Assembly (NCBI RefSeq): GCF_011947365.2
Contig: NZ_JAAVSH020000001.1
Location: 3,356,697 to 3,380,628, forward strand
Length of the DNA stretch: 23,932 nt
Direction: 5' to 3'
Source of the DNA: an endosymbiont of Lamellibrachia barhami
GTDB lineage: Bacteria > Pseudomonadota > Gammaproteobacteria > Chromatiales > Chromatiaceae
Position numbers and translations under genes: made by a program. Shown here in pieces: positions 2,509 to 13,605 of this stretch (position 1 is its first letter; every line of letters begins with the position of its first letter). The notes below the pieces were generated by a model. That model saw only the letters and a list, made by a program, of their open reading frames with translations, ran no database searches and was not told the DNA's origin.

Positions 2509-3226
2509 TTCGCATCCGCTGGAGCAGCTGGTCAAATCTCTGGATGGGGCTGCGACGGATATGCAACTGGTCAAAACCCCACAACGTCTGGAACTGCATC
2601 AGGCATCGGATGGTGGAGTGCTCTATATCGATTTTGTCTCAGGCAAAAATGCGCATCGCCGTCAGTTCGGCGGCGGCCGGGGACAACCGCTGGCCAGAGC
2701 GGTCGGACTCAAGAAAGGCTTAAATCCAAAAGTGCTGGATGCCACGGCGGGACTTGGTCGAGATGCGTTTGTACTGGCGACATTAGGTTGTAAAGTTCAG
2801 CTGCTTGAACGCTCTCCCGTTATCGCTGCTTTGTTGCAGGATGGTCTTGATCGTGCGTCGCAGGATGCCGCCGTCGGACAGATTGCCGCGCGGATGGAAC
2901 TGTTTGCGGCTGATGCCATTCTATTCATGCGGGGTTTGAAAGAGGCCTACAGACCGGATGTGGTCTACCTGGATCCGATGTATCCCCACCGCAAGAAATC
3001 GGCCCTGGTGAAAAAGGAGATGCGAGTCTTCCGCACTCTTGTGGGTGATGATCCGGATGCGGCTGAATTGTTGTGGGCCGCGCGGGAGTGCGCCCTGGCC
3101 AGAGTCGTGGTGAAACGCCCGGCCAAGGCGGGTTTTCTTGGTGAAGCCGAGCCAAGCATGTCGATCAAAAGCCCGAACACCCGCTACGATGTCTACATCA
3201 AATGCGGGCTACAGGCGGTCGATTGA
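2495..3226 (+). CDS. rsmJ: 16S rRNA (guanine1516-N2)-methyltransferase RsmJ
   Basis: 243-aa ORF with [19 protein letters not shown] (SAM motif I), [29 protein letters not shown] and RVVVKRP, matching E. coli RsmJ (YhiQ) blocks. The ATG at 2495 overlaps the MFS gene end by 14 nt. Confidence 0.9.
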
Positions 3227-3227
3227 G

Positions 3228-4355
3228 ATGGAGCGTTTTGCCACACTCTTTGGTGAATTTTCACTCAGCCGCTATCCAGTGCGCGCTAAAGAGAAGCTGC
3301 GTGCCTGGGATGCAGCGGACGAGTATCTTCTTAACTTTCTTGCCGATGAGGATCTGCTATCACAAAGTCGCAAACTCCTGATCCTGAACGATAGTTTTGG
3401 CGCCCTTGGAACAGCCTTGGCGCAATTTGCACCGGTGAGTCAGGTTGATTCTTTTCTCGCTGAAGAGGCTACACGGCAGAATCTGTCAAACAATGGATTG
3501 TCGGTGGACGCGGTATCACTTATCGATTCACTCCAAACCCACCGAACCCGCTACGATCTGGTGCTGGTCAGAGTCACCAAGACCCTCGCGCTTCTGGAGG
3601 ATGAACTGCTACGGCTGAGGCCCCATCTGGCGGATAACTGCCGCATCATCGGCTGCGGTATGGTGAAGCAGATCCACAGCTCCACTCTGAAACTGTTTGA
3701 GTCGGTCATCGGGCCGACCAGGACCTCTCTGGCAAAGAAGAAGGCGCGCCTGATCTTTTCCGATCCAGACACGACACTGCCGGTTTCATCCTCTCCCTAT
3801 CCGCTCTCTTATTCGTTGGAAGATAGCGAATATCGACTGATCAACCACGCCAATGTATTTTCCCGCGACAGGCTTGATATCGGCACTCGGCTCTTGCTGC
3901 AACATATTCCGGCGCAGGGGTTGTCAGAGATTGTGGATCTGGGTTGCGGCAACGGTGTGGTGGGTCTCATCGCGGCGGAAAGAAATCCCCATGCACGGAT
4001 CCATTTCGTGGACGAGTCCTACATGGCGGTTGCAAGCGCCAAGGCGACCTTTGTGGCTTCCGGCATGGGAAATAGCGCGGTGTTCAGAGTGGCGGATGCA
4101 TTGAGCGGTTTCACCCCTGAAACCGTGGATCTGGTTCTCTGTAATCCCCCCTTTCACCAGCAGCAGGTGGTGGGTGATTTCATCGCCTGGCGTATGTTCA
4201 GTCAGGCGGTGAAGGTGTTAAAACGCGGGGGAGAGCTGCGTATCGTCGGTAATCGTCACCTCAACTATCACGCCAAACTGAAACGTCTGTTTGGTAATGT
4301 GGAACAGCTCTCCGTTGATCCGAAATTCGTCATACTGCGGGCGGTTAAACGATAA
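3228..4355 (+). CDS. rlmG: 23S rRNA (guanine1835-N2)-methyltransferase RlmG, paralog 1
   Basis: 375 aa from the ATG at 3228, which lies 1 nt after the rsmJ TGA (tgagatg). Matches to E. coli RlmG (YgjO): LRAWDAADEYLL, LILNDSFGAL, HANVFSRDRLDIGTR, VDLGCGNGVVG (motif I), FVDESYMAVAS, LCNPPFHQQ (motif IV) and FVILRAVK. The track ORF start at 3138 is an out-of-context extension overlapping rsmJ. Confidence 0.9.
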   Translation: MERFATLFGEFSLSRYPVRAKEKLRAWDAADEYLLNFLADEDLLSQSRKLLILNDSFGALGTALAQFAPVSQVDSFLAEEATRQNLSNNGLSVDAVSLIDSLQTHRTRYDLVLVRVTKTLALLEDELLRLRPHLADNCRIIGCGMVKQIHSSTLKLFESVIGPTRTSLAKKKARLIFSDPDTTLPVSSSPYPLSYSLEDSEYRLINHANVFSRDRLDIGTRLLLQHIPAQGLSEIVDLGCGNGVVGLIAAERNPHARIHFVDESYMAVASAKATFVASGMGNSAVFRVADALSGFTPETVDLVLCNPPFHQQQVVGDFIAWRMFSQAVKVLKRGGELRIVGNRHLNYHAKLKRLFGNVEQLSVDPKFVILRAVKR

Positions 4356-4424
4356 TCTTTCGCCACTGTCTTTATCGGTGCTGCATCACCTGCGCACATT
4401 GGACAAAGTACGCTCCTACGGGTT

Positions 4425-4835
4425 TTACTCTGACCCCAAACTGCAGAGTTTCCTTAGGTGGATATCAATCCTGCATCGCCTGCGCCGCGTTCGATAAAGT
4501 CCGCTGCCGGTGTGTCACCAAACCCAACGCGCGCTCAGTCGGATCTGCTCAACATTAGGTGATCAGTCCTGGCGTCAATAGGGTCTCCGGCAGCAGAGCC
4601 AGCCCAATCCGATCGACGCCAGCATCTTCAATGTCTCAGATAGTCGGTAGGCTGCAGTTGATCTTATATCCCTCTGCTTCGAGGCGATCTTTCAGCAGTG
4701 TTCGCGTGTAGGTGCCGGTCGGAGGACCGCAGGATGTTGGATAAGCTTCAATCGATGTTGGCCGACCGGCCAGCGGGTGCTCTCCCCACGATGAAACAGA
4801 GTGGGTCGTGCCAAACCTGCTGCGTCAGCAGATTT
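4425..4835 (-). pseudogene. Orphan 3' remnant of the LysR-family regulator gene (copy of 6512-6925), disrupted by many frameshifts
   Basis: Nucleotide-level alignment to the 3' part of the intact lysR gene, but with at least 12 small indels in about 410 nt. Examples: gcgctcagtc vs gcgctccagtc; tcggtaggctg vs tcggtggagaggctg; ggtgccggtcgg vs ggtgcccagggtcggg. No - strand ORF of 60 aa or more survives here, and the 5' HTH-encoding part is absent. Confidence 0.85.
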
Positions 4836-4838
4836 TCA

Positions 4839-5307
4839 TCGAGATGCGTTTGTACTGGCGACATTAGGTTGTAAAGTTCAGCTGCTTGAACGCTCTCCCG
4901 TTATCGCTGCTTTGTTGCAGGATGGTCTTGATCGTGCGTTGGAGGATGCAGCCGTCGGACAGATTGCCGCGCGGATGGAACTGTTTTCGGCTGATGCCAT
5001 TCTGTTCATGCGGGGTTTGAAAGAGGCCTACAGACCGGATGTGGTCTACCTGGATCCGATGTATCCCCATCGCAAGAAATCGGCCCTGGTGAAAAAGGAG
5101 ATGCGAGTCTTCCGCACTCTTGTGGGTGATGATCCGGATGCGGCTGAATTGTTGCGGGCCGCGCGGGAGTGCGCTCTGGCCAGAGTCGTGGTGAAACGTC
5201 CGGCCAAGGCGGGTTTTCTTGGTGAAGCCGAGCCAAGCATGTCGATCAAAGGCCCGAACACCCGCTACGATGTCTATATCAAACGCGGGCTACAGGCGGT
5301 CGATTGA
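4839..5307 (+). pseudogene. Truncated rsmJ (3' 156 codons only). The frame is intact and lies within a 168-codon ORF starting at GTG 4801
   Basis: 12 nt differences and no indels against rsmJ 2758-3226. It lacks the first ~88 codons, including most of the [11 protein letters not shown] motif. The 13 N-terminal codons of ORF 4801-5307 (MGRAKPAASADFH) come from the antisense of the lysR remnant. No Shine-Dalgarno sequence is evident before GTG 4801. Confidence 0.8.
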
Positions 5308-5308
5308 G

Positions 5309-6436
5309 ATGGAGCGTTTTGCCACCCCCTTTGGTGAATTTTCACTCAGCCGCTATCCAGTGCGTTCTAAAGAGAAGCTGCGTGCCTGGGATGCAGCGGA
5401 CGAGTATCTTCTTAACTTTCTTGCCGATGAGAATCTGCTTTCACAGAGCAGCAAACTCCTGATCCTGAACGACAGTTTTGGCGCCCTTGGAACAGCCTTG
5501 GCGCAATTTGCACCGGTGAGTCAGGTTGATTCTTTTCTCGCTGAAGAGGCTACACGGCAGAATCTGTCAGCCAATGGATTGCCGGTGGACGCGGTATCAC
5601 TTATCGATTCACTCCAAACCCACCAAACCCGTTACGATCTGGTACTGGTCAGAGTCACCAAGACCCTCGCGCTGCTGGAGGATGAACTGCTGCGACTGAA
5701 GCCCCATCTGGCGGATAACTGCCGCATCATCGGCTGCGGTATGGTGAAGCAGATCCACAGCTCCACTCTGAAACTGTTTGAGTCGGTCATCGGGCCGACC
5801 AGGACCTCTCTGGCAAAGAAGAAGGCGCGCCTGATCTTTTCCGATCCAGACACGACACTGCCGGTTTCATCCTCTCCCTATCCGCTCTCTTATTCGTTGG
5901 AAGATAGCGAATATCGACTGATCAACCACGCCAATGTATTTTCCCGCGACAGGCTTGATATCGGCACTCGGCTCTTGCTGCAACATATTCCGGCGCAGGG
6001 GTTGTCAGAGATTGTGGATCTGGGTTGCGGCAACGGTGTGGTGGGTCTCATCGCAGCGGAAAGAAATCCCCATGCACGAATCCATTTCGTGGACGAGTCC
6101 TACATGGCGGTTGCCAGCGCCAAGGCGACCTTTGAGGCTTCCGGCCTGGGAAATAGCGCGGTGTTCAGAGTGGCGGATGCATTGAGCGGTATCACCCCTG
6201 AAACCGTGGATTTGGTTCTCTGTAATCCCCCCTTTCACCAGCAGCAGGTGGTGGGTGATTTCATCGCCTGGCGTATGTTCAGTCAGGCGGTGAAGGTGTT
6301 AAAACGCGGGGGAGAGCTGCGTATCGTCGGTAATCGTCATCTCAACTATCACGCCAAACTGAAACGTCTGTTTGGTAATGTGGAACAGCTCTCCGTTGAT
6401 CCGAAATTCGTCATACTGCGGGCGGTTAAACGATAA
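5309..6436 (+). CDS. rlmG: 23S rRNA (guanine1835-N2)-methyltransferase RlmG, paralog 2
   Basis: 375 aa, 11 aa differences from paralog 1, with all catalytic motifs (VDLGCGNGVVG, NPPFHQQ) intact. The same tgagatg stop/start junction (5305-5311) links it to the upstream truncated rsmJ ORF. Confidence 0.9.
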   Translation: MERFATPFGEFSLSRYPVRSKEKLRAWDAADEYLLNFLADENLLSQSSKLLILNDSFGALGTALAQFAPVSQVDSFLAEEATRQNLSANGLPVDAVSLIDSLQTHQTRYDLVLVRVTKTLALLEDELLRLKPHLADNCRIIGCGMVKQIHSSTLKLFESVIGPTRTSLAKKKARLIFSDPDTTLPVSSSPYPLSYSLEDSEYRLINHANVFSRDRLDIGTRLLLQHIPAQGLSEIVDLGCGNGVVGLIAAERNPHARIHFVDESYMAVASAKATFEASGLGNSAVFRVADALSGITPETVDLVLCNPPFHQQQVVGDFIAWRMFSQAVKVLKRGGELRIVGNRHLNYHAKLKRLFGNVEQLSVDPKFVILRAVKR

Positions 6437-6511
6437 TCTTTTCGCCACTGTCTTTTATCAATTGCTGCATCACCTGCGCACATTGGACAAAGTACGCTCC
6501 TACAGGGGTTT

Positions 6512-7492: not shown

Positions 7493-8905
7493 ATGACTAA
7501 CAAGACCCTTTACGACAAACTCTGGGATTCACATGTAGTGCGTTACGCTGAAAACGACACTGCACTGCTCTATATCGACCGGCAACTGGTGCATGAGGTG
7601 ACTTCACCCCAGGCCTTCGAAGGGTTGCGACTTGCAGGCCGTAAACCCTGGCGTGTCGAGGCCAATCTGGCCACGCCTGATCACAACGTACCCACCACGA
7701 GTCGTCCCAACGGAATCGCGGATATCTCCGATCCGATTGCACGCATACAGGTGGAGACCCTGGATACCAATTGCGAAGAGTTTGGTTTGACCGAATTCAC
7801 CATGAACGACATCCGTCAGGGCATAGTGCATGTGGTTGGGCCGGAGCAGGGTGCTACCCTGCCGGGCATGACGGTGGTGTGTGGCGACTCCCACACCTCC
7901 ACTCACGGTGCCATGGGTGCACTGGCATTCGGCATCGGAACCTCGGAGGTTGAGCATGCGCTCGCTACCCAGTGCCTGATCCAGAAGAAGTCGAAATCGA
8001 TGTTGATTAGCGTCGACGGCAAGACCGCCCCCGGCGTTACTGCCAAGGACATCGTATTGGCGGTCATCGGTGAGATCGGCACCGCCGGCGGTACCGGTTA
8101 CGCCATTGAGTTTGGTGGTCAGGCAATCCGTGACCTCTCCATCGAAGGTCGGCTGACGGTCTGCAATATGGCGATCGAGGCGGGTGCCAGGGCCGGTTTC
8201 GTGGCAGTGGATGAGAAGACCATCGACTATGTCAAAGGCCGTCCCTATGCACCGGAGGGTGAGGTACTGGAGCTGGCCATCACCAACTGGCAGACCCTGC
8301 ACAGTGATGAAGGTGCTGAGTTCGATAGGGTCGTCAACATCGATGCGGCAGGGATCAAACCTCAGGTTACCTGGGGCACCTCTCCCGAGATGGTGGTCTG
8401 CGTGGATGCGCGGGTGCCGGATCCGGATCAGATCGATGATCCGGTCAAAGCGGAAGGCATGCGCCGGGCGCTGGACTATATGGGACTCGAAGCGGGCACG
8501 CCGATCAGTGAGATCGATGTGGACAAGGTCTTTATCGGCTCCTGCACCAACTCCCGTATCGAGGACATGCGCGAGGCTGCAAAGGTAGCCAAGGGTAGAC
8601 GGGTAGCAGACAACATCAAACTGGCGCTGGTCGTTCCGGGATCCGGACTGGTGAAGCAGCAGGCGGAAGCCGAAGGACTCGACAAAATCTTCGTTGATGC
8701 AGGATTTGAGTGGCGTGAGCCGGGCTGCTCCATGTGTCTGGCCATGAATGCCGACCGGCTGGAGCCGGGTGAGCGTTGTGCATCGACCTCGAATCGCAAT
8801 TTCGAGGGCCGGCAGGGGCAGGGTGGGCGCACCCATCTGGTCAGTCCTGCGATGGCTGCCGCGGCTGCGATTGCCGGGCACTTCGTGGATGTGAGGGATT
8901 TCTGA
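7493..8905 (+). CDS. leuC: 3-isopropylmalate dehydratase large subunit
   Basis: 470 aa. Motifs: [68 protein letters not shown] and the Fe-S Cys ligands. An aagg Shine-Dalgarno sequence lies upstream. Confidence 0.97.
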
Positions 8906-8907
8906 TT

Positions 8908-8976
8908 CACCACGAAGGACGTAATGAGAGAAAAACTATTTGTTTTTCTTTATCTTACTCGGCGTTCTTCGCGTAC
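8908..8976. repeat. Inverted-repeat element E1 (cargo-less hairpin) in the leuC-leuD spacer
   Basis: The left arm cacgaaggacg (8911-8921) pairs with the right arm cgttcttcgcg (8963-8973) at 9/11 positions. An inner perfect 8-bp hairpin is agaaaaac (8929-8936) / gtttttct (8942-8949). The right arm is two 9-mers, gcgttcttc gcgtacttt, of the same family as E2/E3. leuC and leuD are normally adjacent, but here they are 88 nt apart. Confidence 0.55.
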
Positions 8977-8993
8977 TTTATGGCTATCTGATT

Positions 8994-9632
8994 ATGAAAA
9001 AATTCGAGACATTTACCGGCCTCGTCTGTCCATTGGATCGTTCCAATGTGGACACCGATGCCATCATTCCCAAGCAGTTTCTTAAGTCGATCAAACGTTC
9101 CGGGTTTGGTCCCAACCTGTTTGATGAATGGCGCTATCTGGATCATGGCGAGCCGGGTATGGACAACAGCAAGCGCTTGTTGAATGAGGATTTTGTCCTC
9201 AATGACCCCCGCTACCAGGGGGCGGGCATCCTTCTGGGACGCGATAATTTTGGTTGTGGTTCTTCCCGTGAGCATGCGCCCTGGGCGTTGGAAGATTATG
9301 GGTTTCGGGTCATAATCGCCACCAGTTTTGCGGATATATTCTTTAATAACTGCTTTAAGAATGGAATATTACCTGTTGTTTTATCAGAAGAAATAATAGA
9401 TAACCTGTTTGCTGTGGCAGGTGGAGAGAAGCCTCTGGAGATAGCTGTGGACCTAGAGGCACAGCAATTGAAGGTAGCAGAGAATGGGGTCATTCCATTT
9501 GAGGTGGATGCATTCCGCAAGCACTGCCTGCTCGATGGGCTCGATGATATCGGCCTCACCCTGCAGCATGTGGATGCCATCAAGGCCTATGAAGTACGCC
9601 GGCGCCAGGAAGCGCCCTGGTTATTTGGTTGA
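8994..9632 (+). CDS. leuD: 3-isopropylmalate dehydratase small subunit
   Basis: 212 aa from the ATG at 8994 ([31 protein letters not shown]..., [13 protein letters not shown]). The track start at 8940 is a TTG reading through the E1 repeat. Confidence 0.95.
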
Positions 9633-9634
9633 AG

Positions 9635-10094
9635 AACCGCAAAGTGCGCTAAGAGCGCTAAGAAAAACAGTTACAAGGATGTAAGGGATGGATATCGAAA
9701 AGAGCGGGCGTCAGGTCGTAGATTCAGCGGTCAAGGTTCATCGAGAGATGGGGCCTGGACTGTTAGAAAAAACCTATGAGACATGCCTGGAATATGAGCT
9801 GCGCAAAAGAAACATCCCAACCGCGAGGCAGGTTGAATTGCCAGTGGTTTATGATGGACTCAAGCTTGATGGCGGTTACAGGATAGACTTGCTTGTCGAT
9901 CAAATGATCGTCATAGAGATCAAAGCGGTCCGATTGCTAAGCGAGATACACGATGCACAGTTGTTGAATTACCTGAAGTTAGGTGATTTTAGACTGGGTT
10001 ATTTATTAAATTTCAATGTTAGGAGAATGAAGTTCGGGATAAAACGCATGGTGAATAATCTTTAAACTTTGCGTTCTTTGCGTTCTTTGCGGTT
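9635..10094 (+). mobile_element. Inverted-repeat-bracketed cassette E2 carrying the GxxExxY gene (putative selfish or mobile insertion in the leuD-leuB spacer)
   Basis: The 28-nt left arm is aaccgcaaagtgcgctaagagcgctaag (9635-9662). The 28-nt right arm is ctttgcgttctttgcgttctttgcggtt (10067-10094). The arms are complementary at 23/28 positions, including a perfect terminal 10-mer aaccgcaaag/ctttgcggtt. Each arm contains a tandem 9-mer. The ORF stop lies 1 nt from the right arm. Mobility itself is inferred, not shown. Confidence 0.45.
9688..10065 (+). CDS. GxxExxY protein (PD-(D/E)XK nuclease-fold, PDDEXK_3-like)
   Basis: 125 aa. It contains [10 protein letters not shown] (the G-x-x-E-x-x-Y motif) and a D...E-x-K core (RIDLLVD...IVIEIK). 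The size and YLLNFN C-terminal block fit the GxxExxY family. Confidence 0.85.
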
Positions 10095-10100
10095 AATAAT

Positions 10101-11174
10101 ATGAGCAAAAATATACTGATTCTACCGGGTGACGGCATTGGCCCTGAGATTGTTACCGAGGCGGTAAAGGTGATGGCCGCACTGCGTGACGATTTTGGCC
10201 TGGATATCGAGATGGACGAGGCGCTGGTCGGTGGCGCTGCCATCGATGCCACCGGTAGTCCGTTGCCTGAAGCAACTATGGAACTGGCGCAGGAGGCGGA
10301 CGCGATTCTGCTTGGTGCAGTCGGTGGCTACAAATGGGAAGGGCTGGACATCTCCATCCGTCCTGAGAAGGGGCTGCTGGGTCTGCGCGCCGGTCTCAAT
10401 CTCTTTGCCAATCTGCGTCCCGCGATCCTCTACCCGCAACTGGCGGATGCCTCGACCCTGAAGCCGGAAGTGGTTTCGGGTCTCGATATTATGATCGTGC
10501 GCGAGCTGACCGGCGGCATCTACTTTGGCCAGCCCCGGGGCGTGCGTGAGCTCGATAATGGCGAAAAACAGGGCTTCAATACCCTGGTCTACGCCGAGTC
10601 CGAGGTCGACCGCATCAGCCGCGTCGCCTTCGACATCGCCATGAAGCGTGACAAACGGGTCTGTTCCGTGGATAAGGCCAATGTCTTGGAGTGCACTGAG
10701 TTGTGGCGTGAGGTCGCCACCCGTGTGGGCGACGACTACCCGGATGTTGAACTGAGTCACATGTATGTGGATAACGCTGCGATGCAGTTGGTGCGGGCGC
10801 CGAAACAGTTTGATGTGATGGTTACCACCAACATGTTCGGTGATATTCTGTCAGATTGCGCCGCCATGCTCACCGGTTCCATCGGCATGCTGCCCTCCGC
10901 CTCGCTGGATGAGAACCGCAAGGGCATGTATGAGCCGATCCACGGCTCTGCGCCGGATATCGCCGGGCAGAACAAGGCGAACCCGCTGGCCACCATCCTC
11001 TCGGTATCGATGATGCTGCGTTACAGTCTGGACGAAGCCGCGATGGCGGATCGTATCGAGGCGGCGGTCAACAAGGTGCTGGACGATGGCTTGCGGACCC
11101 AGGACATCATGTCCGAGGGAAAAACCGAGGTCAGCTGCGACGCCATGGGCGATGCGGTGGTCGCGGCGCTGTGA
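10101..11174 (+). CDS. leuB: 3-isopropylmalate dehydrogenase
   Basis: 357 aa. Motifs: [48 protein letters not shown] and [16 protein letters not shown]. Confidence 0.97.
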
Positions 11175-11180
11175 TGTTGT

Positions 11181-11262
11181 AACCACGAAGAACGCAAAGG
11201 CTGTAATAAAGTCATTGTTCACGCCGATAAGGATCTTTGCGTACTTCGCGTTCTTTGCGGTT
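11181..11262. repeat. Inverted-repeat element E3 (cargo-less) in the leuB-asd spacer
   Basis: The left arm aaccacgaagaacgcaaag (11181-11199) pairs at 16/19 positions with the end of the right arm ctttgcgtacttcgcgttctttgcggtt (11235-11262). That right arm plus the following aat differs from the E2 right arm at only 2 of 31 positions. The loop is 35 nt. Confidence 0.6.
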
Positions 11263-11284
11263 AATTGAAATAGAGACGAGACAG

Positions 11285-12403
11285 ATGAAACGAGTTGGAT
11301 TTGTAGGTTGGCGTGGCATGGTCGGATCGGTCCTGATGGGCCGTATGCGCGAAGAGAACGATTTTGCCGATATCGAAGAGCCGGTCTTCTTCACCACCTC
11401 CCAGGCGGGCCAGAAGGGTCCCGACATCGGCAGAGAGATTCCGCTGCTCAAGGATGCGACGGATATCGATGAACTGAAGAAAATGGATGTAATCCTTACC
11501 TGCCAGGGTGGCGGTTACACCAATGAGGTCTTCCCCAAGTTGCGTGCTGCGGGTTGGGACGGCTACTGGATCGATGCGGCATCCAGCCTGCGTATGAAGG
11601 ATCACACCATTATCGTGCTCGATCCGGTCAACGACAACGTCATTCGCGATGGCCTGAGCAGTGGCGTCAAGGACTACATCGGGGGCAATTGCACCGTCAG
11701 TCTGATGCTGATGGCGCTGGGTGGTCTCTTCCGGGAGGATCTGGTGGAGTGGACGACTGCTATGACCTATCAGGCTGCATCCGGCGCCGGTGCCAAAAAC
11801 ATGCGGGAGTTGATCAAACAGATGGGCGCAGTAAAGGCGGCTGTCAGCAATGAGCAGCTGGATGATCCCTACTCGCCGATTCTCCCCATCGACCAGGCGG
11901 TGGCGGATGTCATCCGCAGCGACAGCTTCCCCACCGAGAATTTTGGTGCGCCGTTGGCGGGTGCTCTGATTCCCTGGATCGATGTGGCACGGGAGAATGG
12001 CCAGAGCAAGGAGGAGTGGAAAGGTTTTGCCGAGACCAACAAGATCCTGCGCCGTACCGACAATCCTGTGCCCATCGACGGAACCTGTGTGCGCATTGGC
12101 GCGATGCGCTGTCACAGTCAGGCACTGACGGTCAAACTGCGCAGGGATGTGCCGATGGATGAGGTGGAAGAGATCCTCGGTTCCGCCAATGACTGGGTCA
12201 AGGTAGTGCCCAATGAACGGGACATCACTGTACAGGAGTTGACGCCGGCCAAAGTGACCGGTTCCCTGGTGGTGCCGGTGGGTCGTCTGCGCAAGATGAA
12301 TCTCGGTGCGAAATACCTGAATGCCTTCACGGTGGGTGATCAGCTTCTCTGGGGTGCGGCGGAACCCTTGCGACGGATGTTGCGTATTCTCATAGAGAGC
12401 TGA
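11285..12403 (+). CDS. asd: Aspartate-semialdehyde dehydrogenase
   Basis: 372 aa from the ATG at 11285 ([21 protein letters not shown]). The catalytic-Cys motif [16 protein letters not shown] is present. The track start at 11237 runs through repeat E3. Confidence 0.95.
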
Positions 12404-12585
12404 TTGATTAAATGCTTGGGGCCGACTTTGCTCCAATGCCCGGAAGAAGATGGCCCCGGCGCGCAAATAGCGTGTACGGGGTTCTTCATGAATAGTGGAA
12501 ACTGAACACGGCCCCGCCGCTCCCGGTGTTTCTTCGTAACGAATTGCGGGGAACCGAACCCTATAATTTAGAGATTGAACAGAAT

Positions 12586-13605
12586 ATGAACCCTGAAGTG
12601 GATATTGCACTGGTCGGCGCGACCGGTCTGGTTGGTGAAGCCTTACTGGAGGCCATCTCTTCGCATCCCATGCTTGCCGGTAGCGTGCAGGTGCTCGGGG
12701 ATGAGGAGGCGGCGGGAGATACGGTTGAGTTCGGGAAACGGGCATTGACCATTGCTGATCTGTCGCTGTTCGATTTCACCCAAGTCCGTATTGTTATTTC
12801 GACCGGCGAAGACTCCTCTGCTGGAGACTGGCTTGATCTCGCACAGGATGCCGGTTGTATTATTCTGGATATCGGTGCCCGGCTGCTGGAGGCGACAGAT
12901 CTGCCACCTGTGGTCGGCTGGGTCAATCCTGAGTCAATGGAAGTTGTATCGAAAGGGGGCATCATTACCCTGCCGGACGCAGGCACAAGCCAGTTGGTCA
13001 GGATTCTCAAACCCGTGCTGGACAGGGTGGGGCTTGAACAAGTCTCGGTGGTCAGTTATCAGGCCGTTTCAGATTTCGGTCATGCCGGCGTGGAAGAGAT
13101 GGCGAGGCAGACTGCGCAGTTGCTCAACGCCAAACCGATAACTCCAGTACTGTTTCCCCAGCAGATTGCATTCAATCTTTTGTCGATAGTGGACGAGGTC
13201 AACGAAGACGGGAGCACCCTCGGTGAGACAAAGGCTGAGCAGGATGCCCTGAATGTCCTTGGATGCGATGATCTTTCGTTAACCGTGACAACTGCCATAG
13301 CGCCTGTTTTTTACGGACACTCACAGGTGGTTCAGTTTCAAACTTCCCGGCCGCTAACATTGAAGAACCTGCAGTCGCTGTTGGCAGAGACTGAGGGTGT
13401 AACGCTTGTGGATAGTGAAAACGATGCCTGTGTCAGTCCAGTGAGCCATGCTTCAGGCAAGGAAGAGATCACAGTCGGCAGGATCAGGTCTGTAGGGAAA
13501 AACGCAACGCAATTCTCACTTTTTACAGTGGCTGACAATCTGCGTTCAGGTATTGCGGCAAATGTTGTGAAGATTGTTGAAGTTTTGGTAAAAGACTATT
13601 TATAA
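12586..13605 (+). CDS. usg: USG-1-like protein (Asd paralog without the catalytic cysteine)
   Basis: 339 aa from the ATG at 12586 (MNPEVDIALVGATGLVGEALLEAIS, compare E. coli Usg NIAVLGATGAVGEALLETL). At the Asd P-N-C-S-T-I-Q site it reads LPDAGTSQL (E. coli Usg has PDSLTSQ). The APVFYGHSQ His motif is retained. Its position between asd and fimV/truA fits usg synteny. Confidence 0.8.
   Translation: MNPEVDIALVGATGLVGEALLEAISSHPMLAGSVQVLGDEEAAGDTVEFGKRALTIADLSLFDFTQVRIVISTGEDSSAGDWLDLAQDAGCIILDIGARLLEATDLPPVVGWVNPESMEVVSKGGIITLPDAGTSQLVRILKPVLDRVGLEQVSVVSYQAVSDFGHAGVEEMARQTAQLLNAKPITPVLFPQQIAFNLLSIVDEVNEDGSTLGETKAEQDALNVLGCDDLSLTVTTAIAPVFYGHSQVVQFQTSRPLTLKNLQSLLAETEGVTLVDSENDACVSPVSHASGKEEITVGRIRSVGKNATQFSLFTVADNLRSGIAANVVKIVEVLVKDYL

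Follow-up and report, generated by a model that had tools for sequence, protein, structure and literature searches.

What accounts for the related inverted repeats in three consecutive spacers of a leu gene cluster, one of which also encloses a small nuclease-fold gene? The repeats lie in a 23,932-nt stretch of the genome of an endosymbiont of Lamellibrachia barhami (Gammaproteobacteria; Chromatiales; Chromatiaceae; contig NZ_JAAVSH020000001.1 of assembly GCF_011947365.2, positions 3,356,697 to 3,380,628 of the forward strand), referred to as the window in the following. NCBIfam models give the gene order leuC, E1, leuD, E2, leuB, E3, and asd, where E1 to E3 denote the repeat elements and E2 carries a gene of the GxxExxY/PDDEXK_3 family. 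A preliminary description, made from the sequence alone, proposed that E2 is an autonomous element and that E1 and E3 are copies resembling miniature transposable elements with inverted repeats (MITEs), recently inserted into normally short spacers; as an alternative, it suggested a stem similar to that of the intervening sequences (IVS) of rRNA. Of these readings, the intervening-sequence-like one agrees best with our findings. E2 belongs to a very large cassette family present in many phyla, in which a gene for a nuclease of about 125 aa with its own ribosome-binding site is boxed by inverted arrays of short units, and E1 and E3 are hairpins of this family that have no cargo. The best explanation overall, to which we assign a probability of about 60%, is that the cassette and hairpins are old and vertically inherited, and that their arms would act both as a stem in the transcript and as sequences recognized by the nuclease.

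The spacer lengths (88 nt for leuC-leuD, 468 nt for leuD-leuB, and 110 nt for leuB-asd) and the layout of E2 were confirmed as first described (Table 1). The two E2 arms are 28 nt each, lie 404 nt apart, and are complementary at 23 of 28 positions (82%), or at 25 of 28 when G·U pairs are counted, with terminal 10-mers (AACCGCAAAG and CTTTGCGGTT) that pair perfectly. The left arm begins 2 nt past the leuD stop codon and consists of AAC followed by three 9-nt units (CGCAAAG-TG, CGCTAAG-AG, and CGCTAAG). The right arm likewise has three units (CTTTGCGTT, CTTTGCGTT, and CTTTGCG, followed by GTT) and ends 6 nt before the leuB ATG, and the stop codon of the GxxExxY open reading frame (ORF), which ends at 10065, is separated from it by 1 nt. 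E3 comprises a left arm (TAACCACGAAGAACGCAAAG, 11180-11199), a loop (11200-11234, 35 nt), and a right arm (11235-11263); its pairing can be drawn between 11180-11199 and 11244-11263 (85%), or between 11186-11199 and 11235-11248 around the 35-nt loop. The right arms of E3 and E2 are identical at 29 of 31 positions (94%, direct repeat D1), so that both the two differences and the loop length noted earlier were recovered by the repeat finder. E1 begins 1-2 nt past the leuC stop and has a canonical left terminus (TTCACC-ACGAAG) and a right arm that includes GCGTTCTTCGCG; described before as a diverged hairpin, it folds better than 199 of 200 shuffled sequences (z = -3.46), the remaining one folding equally well. 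The motif agaaaaac, said to follow the arm in both E1 and E2, is indeed present, but it is merely an 8-mer and only partly conserved in orthologues.

Within the window, these arms are confined to the leu spacers. A 19-mer arm consensus with up to 3 mismatches gave five matches at these sites only, with 0 expected; the 12-mer GCGTWCTTYGCG with up to 1 mismatch gave seven, compared with 0.53 expected, all inside the three leu spacers; and a generic detector of 9-mer arrays found arms in the same three spacers only. Covariance models of Rfam run over 8800-11400 at E ≤ 10 returned only chance-level matches, none of them relevant. No intrinsic terminator (a GC-rich stem with a T-run) was found at E1, E2, or E3, and no promoter-like site in the elements. 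The three elements form one family, as had been proposed. E1 to E3 and the orthologues of E2 all begin 1-6 nt past the upstream stop codon; a general rule that elements begin right after upstream stops was rejected, as the distances scatter widely and spurious ORFs contaminate the data, and only the local pattern stands.

The bracketing of GxxExxY genes by specific inverted repeats is a general rule. We examined 82 unrelated loci (80 metagenomic and two on viral contigs) encoding GxxExxY relatives 44-61% identical. A locus was counted as bracketed when alignment alone of its upstream with its downstream flank (200 nt each) found an inverted repeat with a score of 14 or more. By this measure, 68 of the 82 loci are bracketed, compared with 8 of 82 in a mismatched-flank control that combined flanks from different loci, with median scores of 21.25 and 9.0 respectively, which bears out the link between GxxExxY genes and inverted repeats suggested earlier. 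Nearly all arms are tandem CGCAAAG, CACAGAG, CACGAAG, CGCAGAG, CACCAAG, or CGCGGAG units plus 2 nt. A self-period of 9 fits the arms best in 38 of 58, and successive cores are spaced by 9 nt in 48 cases, by 8 nt in 20, and by 10 nt in 6. The consensus is symmetric at both ends (T-T-N-A-C, then C-R-C-A-R-A-G), and an array typically has about three units of ~9 nt with the core CRCNRAG, between termini of the form TTNAC-C…G-GTNAA. The median gap is 29 nt between the end of the left arm and the ATG and 7 nt between the stop and the right arm, and the genes are co-oriented with the upstream neighbor in 38 of 45 cases. An apparent association of arm polarity with gene orientation (47:2) was discarded as an artefact, because an inverted repeat reads alike on both strands. 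We found no description of the link between these genes and repeats in Rfam or in the literature searched; a database family comment might still mention the flanking repeats.

Across 1.08 Mb of fetched loci, the generic detector identified 150 elements, compared with none in shuffled sequence, and their loops fall into two length classes (0-150 nt and 300-500 nt). The flanks beyond the termini carry no motif and no information content (138-146 element ends), and inspection of 138 elements revealed no target-site duplication. Long pure (GCGTTCTTT)n arrays of up to ten or more copies occur in loci L006, L073, L083, L098, L106, and L113. Together with the difference of one unit in E3 between the window and a relative (L122), such arrays suggest that the 9-mer units expand by slippage.

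Judging from sequence and structure models, the GxxExxY protein is most likely an active minimal Cas4/RecB-like nuclease and not a known transposase. It matches TIGR04256 with 143.3 bits (cut-off 35, E = 3.9e-42) and PF13366, the only family of the cargo, with 140.6 bits (cut-off 22, E = 3.6e-41). Its motif reads G24-L-L-E27-K-T-Y30, and G24, E27, Y30, D67, E77, and K79 are invariant among 30 homologues. With the AlphaFold model (pLDDT 93.7), the top Foldseek match is Cas4 SSO0001 (4ic1, TM 0.58), and lambda exonuclease and further RecB-like nucleases come next; a sequence search of solved structures gave no match, and the Cas4 matches reported by PADLOC are weak (E ~ 0.01-0.04). The protein thus shares the fold and the invariant catalytic D…E-x-K with Cas4/RecB nucleases, but is half the size and has neither an Fe-S cysteine cluster nor a CRISPR context. 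The family comprises 32,976 clusters at 50% identity (E ≤ 1e-3). Many database entries are 137-140 aa long, many have N-terminal extensions of 10-20 aa, and proteins P0361-P0371 (266-295 aa) contain two GxxExxY domains each; the double-domain and N-terminally extended entries are probably annotation artefacts, produced by gene calls through or within the stop-free arms.

Cargo-less hairpins with the same arms exist as well, as the preliminary description had surmised, and they are abundant across phyla. An exact scan for GCGTWCTTYGCGTWCTTYGCG with one genome per species returned at least 120 loci, compared with about 4 expected by chance, and the matches listed span cyanobacteria, Verrucomicrobia, Planctomycetes, Chloroflexi, Acidobacteria, Proteobacteria, and one Methanoperedens archaeon. 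Among the 120 matches listed, 60 run directly into a GGTT, GGTG, GGCT, or GGTA terminus, and 49 have an inverted partner (AACCGCAAAG-NN-CGCAAAG…) no more than 500 nt upstream, compared with none in shuffled upstream sequence. These partnered loci are mostly cargo-less hairpins of 130-300 nt with a median loop of 62 nt, and only one or two of the 120 loci listed contain a GxxExxY gene. According to crude ORF calls, by which 23 of 59 fall inside a called ORF, hairpin-only elements occupy 13 convergent, 13 co-directional, and 1 divergent spacer.

The age of the elements in the leu cluster can be read from its relatives, of which about 8 kb were covered. The closest homologues of the GxxExxY protein, P0002 (69% identical) and P0005 (66%, Sedimenticola selenatireducens), are both encoded between leuD and leuB; their left arms also begin 2 nt past the leuD stop, and their arms and leader are homologous to those of E2 (in locus L210, AACCGCTAAGGTCGCTAAGAGCGCAAAG…gaaaacaagtttacaaggatgttggaATG). 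The E2 left arm is 86% identical to the orthologous arms of L210 and L211, and the right arm is 96% identical to that of L210 and 82% to that of L211. The proportion of nonsynonymous differences (pN) is 0.17-0.22 for GxxExxY compared with 0.12-0.18 for LeuD, and that of synonymous differences (pS) is saturated at 0.79-0.89. Despite the saturation of synonymous sites, the arms have remained 82-96% identical and pN low, and purifying selection therefore acts on the ORF as well as on the arms. These comparisons clearly indicate that the ancestor shared with Sedimenticola already had the cassette 2 nt past the leuD stop, and that E1 to E3 are old and vertically inherited rather than recent insertions. 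In OY726078.1 (99.4% identical), all three elements are present with one substitution only, in the E3 loop.

Where elements are missing, the pattern is that of loss. L122-L124 (LeuD 88-93% identical) are without the cassette and have an unrelated hairpin of the repetitive extragenic palindromic (REP) type instead (Table 1), but retain the 10-mer aaggatgtaa, now before leuB. In Endoriftia persephonae (LeuD 81%), the leuD-leuB spacer is a 149-nt hairpin of CGCAAAG-type units only, whose right flank is homologous to that of L210. Since E2 is absent in L122-L125 and present in the outgroups, its absence indicates a loss, and the alignments clearly point to deletion of the gene in place in sister lineages, leaving a hairpin or nothing. 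In S. selenatireducens, an internally deleted copy directly upstream of the intact GxxExxY cassette (L211 2267-2500) has lost its middle but retains the leader, the final ~20 codons, and the two arms; these tandem copies can be seen as a snapshot of a cargo-less hairpin forming in place. E1 is conserved in four relatives and is kept at 87-88 nt in L122, L123, and L124; Endoriftia lacks it and has a spacer of 45 nt. The E3 of L122 is shorter by one unit; L123 and L124 retain a spacer of 28-30 nt that begins with TTTGTGGTT, and this right-arm remnant fits a deletion rather than a site that was never occupied. The leuB-asd spacer of Endoriftia is a hairpin of CACAAAG units. No clean pair of filled and empty sites, as recent insertion would predict, was found in the spacers of relatives; the absences suggest loss, and no target-site duplication was found.

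In this clade, several repeat families have gathered in the leu spacers. A different REP-like hairpin (GTAGGTTGGGAT…) lies between leuB and asd in S. selenatireducens. In L210, the leuC-leuD spacer (1692-1805) holds a hairpin whose units, CGCNAAT, have a variant core with a final T, and the leuB-asd spacer (3998-4293, 296 nt) contains a complete hairpin plus two additional right-type arms made of CACAGAG units.

Among known systems, E2 comes closest in architecture to the IVS in the 23S rRNA of Coxiella burnetii, which it matches well, as the alternative in the preliminary description had anticipated. This 428-nt selfish element has terminal inverted repeats that form a 28-bp stem, within which RNase III cleaves; it contains tandem heptamers (GACAGAT) in variable number and an ORF for an S23p four-helix-bundle protein, and IVS, which also occur in Leptospira and other bacteria, are regarded as selfish elements of unknown mobility (PMC4990558). 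Like the IVS, E2 has a small ORF inside a terminal-repeat stem of ~20-30 bp (28-nt arms in E2, 28 bp in Coxiella) and no promoter of its own, and would be embedded in a host transcript; the arms of its family likewise consist of short repeats in tandem, which strains or relatives have in differing copy numbers. E2 differs in its location, which is an mRNA operon spacer (leuD-leuB) instead of helix 25 or 45 of the 23S rRNA, and in its cargo, which is a PD-(D/E)XK nuclease (PF13366) instead of an S23p/four-helix-bundle protein (PF05635). Its units of ~9 nt have a core, CRCNRAG, that is conserved across phyla, whereas the IVS heptamers are variable. No 23S rRNA motifs or context were found in the fetched loci.

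Four-helix-bundle genes outside rRNA were retrieved with a consensus query, which returned genuine PF05635 proteins; a regular-expression search for such genes in the first 212 loci found none. Inverted repeats of tandem heptamers flank 21 of the 34 loci retrieved, and period 7 is best in 14 of 17 non-redundant ones. The heptamer arrays are very variable in sequence (L213-L253), and one widespread allele lies between sdhA (flavoprotein) and sdhB (Fe-S subunit) (L245-L253). The repeat period therefore follows the cargo family, being ~9 nt around GxxExxY genes and 7 nt around four-helix-bundle genes.

REPs and REP doublets forming hairpins (REPINs) are dispersed intergenic inverted repeats; the gene for the REP-associated tyrosine transposase (RAYT) is flanked by such repeats, is single-copy, has been vertically inherited for long periods, and shows no target-site duplication. 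The GxxExxY family resembles this system in that an enzyme gene, vertically inherited over a long time in the leu cluster, is flanked by dispersed hairpin repeats without target-site duplication, but its enzyme is a PF13366 nuclease and not an IS200/IS605-like HUH Y1 transposase, and its arms are tandem 9-mer arrays whose core is common to phyla, whereas REPs are lineage-specific. Correia elements and enterobacterial repetitive intergenic consensus (ERIC) sequences are co-transcribed and processed bacterial MITEs, with target-site duplications, derived from insertion sequence (IS) transposases. E1 to E3 are similar to them as small inverted-repeat elements of operon spacers or 3' regions that fold in the transcript and may likewise affect mRNA processing, but have neither target-site duplication nor transposase. 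Terminal inverted repeats are also common to this family and to MITEs and transposons in general, whose recognized transposase and target-site duplication were not found here. Three other candidates were rejected: an attC/integron cassette (there is no integrase, and there are two arms rather than one site), an IS200/IS605 element (neither TnpA nor TnpB is present), and an attenuator of the leu operon (in view of the spread of the elements across phyla). We class the family with IVS-like or REPIN-like hairpin-bracketed selfish cassettes.

How would such a cassette work and be tolerated between host genes? In both the minimum free energy and the centroid folds of the 491-nt E2 RNA, a stem between the two arms closes the cassette (z = -4.7). 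An RNA role is further favored by the lack of promoter-like and terminator-like sites in the element, by the co-orientation of most GxxExxY genes with their upstream neighbors, and, on crude gene calls, by the scarcity of hairpin-only elements in divergent spacers. Having no promoter of its own, the cassette would be transcribed within the leu operon, and its arms would pair in the transcript to form a stem of ~25 bp that closes it off. By analogy with the 23S rRNA IVS, this stem is probably an RNase III substrate, and processing there would make the insertion tolerable. Because E2 shares its design with the Coxiella IVS, the molecular event that appears most likely is that RNase III processes the leu transcript at E2, and probably also at E1 and E3. 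The encoded nuclease probably recognizes the conserved unit sequence as DNA, since both arms retain this sequence to a greater extent than pairing requires, since the arms show no G·U bias, and since the unit type differs by cargo family; the logic of the system would then be comparable to that of REP/REPIN and RAYT. Substitutions between orthologues fall at unit positions 4, 8, and 9, and C-R-C-x-A-A-G is kept on both arms. Neither leuD nor leuB has a recognizable Shine-Dalgarno sequence in the window (8977-8993 and 10095-10100), relatives without the cassette have AAGGA upstream of leuB, and a formed E2 stem would put the leuD stop beside the leuB start.

Several results weigh against this explanation. 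No clean filled/empty pair was found among the relatives compared, and the mobility of the family is therefore not demonstrated. GxxExxY is nearly missing from plasmids and phages (8 of 72,556 and 0 of 50,697, respectively), and the spread between phyla is left unaccounted for. No GxxExxY remnant was detected in 45 hairpin loops, which implies that most hairpins are not recent deletion products. Mismatches of the G·U type do not exceed those of the A·C type in the arms (81 vs. 74 in cassettes and 70 vs. 76 in hairpins), which speaks against selection on an RNA stem and weakens the RNA half of the explanation. Unit positions 4, 8, and 9 are paired in only 50-75% of the elements collected with a regular expression that fixes the core, so that the conservation of the core in this comparison is partly built in. 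Independent support for the core comes from the orthologue comparison and from the arms found by alignment alone.

A broader account, which we offer tentatively as a possibility, is that the nuclease and the 9-mer hairpins form an unrecognized, phylum-spanning, two-part selfish system, in which CRCNRAG would be read as DNA and the nuclease would either home into palindromic "empty" hairpins or mobilize them. This system would be a nuclease-based counterpart of REPIN-RAYT, and the 23S IVS would be the four-helix-bundle heptamer branch of the same design.

Homing in its specific form would make the near-palindromic hairpins the sites of a dimeric GxxExxY nuclease: a cut empty hairpin would be repaired from a filled copy via arm homology, copying the gene in, and the filled site, with half-sites ~400 bp apart, would be immune. 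The half-sites are indeed symmetric, the unit core is sequence-specific on both arms, symmetric mismatches suit a site read as DNA, the ORF is tightly boxed by the arms, and there is no target-site duplication. Hairpins also outnumber cassettes (~49 vs. 1-2 among the 120 loci listed, a cargo-blind sample), and cassettes and neighboring hairpins are often of one unit type. We nevertheless consider homing rather doubtful. It is entirely inferential, with no filled/empty allele pair found, and leaves the spread of the hairpins themselves unaccounted for; it does not require the long vertical persistence of E2 under purifying selection, and hairpin loops of 0-150 nt mean that the spacing of the half-sites is not fixed.

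The classical transposon of the preliminary description, with an autonomous, cut-and-paste E2 that has GxxExxY as its transposase and recent MITE-like copies in E1 and E3, is unlikely. E2 occupies the syntenic position in distant relatives and is subject to purifying selection, E1 is conserved, genes have been lost in place, and the elements are essentially unchanged in the 99.4% identical relative; even the "empty" leuB-asd site of L123 and L124 retains its TTTGTGGTT remnant. At 138 elements there is neither a target-site duplication nor a flank motif, and a 125-aa Cas4/RecB-like core has no known strand-transfer activity. What speaks for transposition is the resemblance of the arms to terminal inverted repeats, the near-identity of the E2 and E3 right arms (29/31), the tandem copy in Sedimenticola, the presence or absence of E3 among close relatives, and the many cargo-less copies across phyla, often several per 8-kb locus or beside a cassette.

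It is distinctly unlikely that the hairpins are host-beneficial RNA elements only, conserved signals in operon spacers and at the 3' ends of genes for the processing or stability of mRNA, with GxxExxY as an incidental passenger. The arms are conserved despite saturated synonymous sites, the E2 stem is more stable than expected (as given by its z-score), hairpins almost never lie between divergent genes (by crude gene calls), and the analogous IVS stem has been shown to be processed by RNase III (PMC4990558), all of which such a role would explain. It would not explain the lack of a G·U over A·C bias or the poor pairing of the spacer positions in the units, pairing alone does not require the same 7-nt core across phyla, and the correspondence of unit type and period with cargo family points to the encoded protein rather than to a universal host factor. 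A leu-specific attenuator or terminator, or low-complexity noise, suggested by the presence of all three elements in one operon, is in effect refuted by the same arms at hundreds of unrelated loci in many phyla, the absence of T-run terminators at E1 to E3, and shuffled controls with 0 matches.

Table 1. Features of the leu cluster in the window, and the hairpin found in its place in three relatives (positions in the window unless a locus is named)
Feature	Position	Strand	Evidence
leuC	7493-8905	+	NCBIfam TIGR00170, 792 bits
E1, decayed hairpin without cargo	8906-8976	.	RNA fold, motif match 8962-8973
leuD	8994-9632	+	NCBIfam TIGR00171, 271 bits
E2 left arm	9635-9662	.	inverted repeat I1
E2 leader with Shine-Dalgarno-like AAGGA for GxxExxY ORF	9663-9687	+	sequence; homologous leader in L210
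GxxExxY/PDDEXK_3 nuclease gene, 125 aa	9688-10065	+	TIGR04256, PF13366
E2 right arm	10067-10094	.	inverted repeat I1
leuB	10101-11174	+	TIGR00169, 516 bits
E3, hairpin without cargo	11180-11263	.	inverted repeats I6 and I8, direct repeat D1
asd	11285-12403	+	TIGR01745, 610 bits
REP-like hairpin GTAGGGTGCGC…GCGCACCCTAC in leuD-leuB spacer	L122 3699-3801; L123 4643-4711; L124 3643-3792		

Two further features of the window lie outside the elements. Directly downstream of the gamma-type asd is a second asd paralogue of the asd_B type (12526-13605), an arrangement conserved in every relative examined. Upstream of the leu cluster, a direct duplication of ~1.6 kb (2750-4365 and 4831-6446; ~97% identity, 49 mismatches, offset 2081 nt) includes an ORF for an RlmG-like 23S rRNA methyltransferase (3138-4355 and 5219-6436). 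The RlmG-like region is single-copy beside a LysR gene in L123, and OY726078.1 has an IS110-family transposase (L209 333-1463) in place of the duplicated region; this part of the genome is thus rearranged between near-identical strains (the window and OY726078.1).

For genome annotation, the hairpins constitute a class of dispersed repeats missing from Rfam, and the elements are a source of gene-calling artefacts, namely N-terminal extensions and fused "double" proteins that read through the arms. For the GxxExxY/PDDEXK_3 family, which has ~33,000 clusters at 50% identity and no known function, the arrays of three CRCNRAG units (e.g., 3 x CGCAAAGNN) offer a concrete substrate for the nuclease. 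As the 23S IVS and the four-helix-bundle genes follow the same design with a different unit, the question of the nature and mobility of the rRNA IVS, now 30 years old, is tied to a much larger class of elements.

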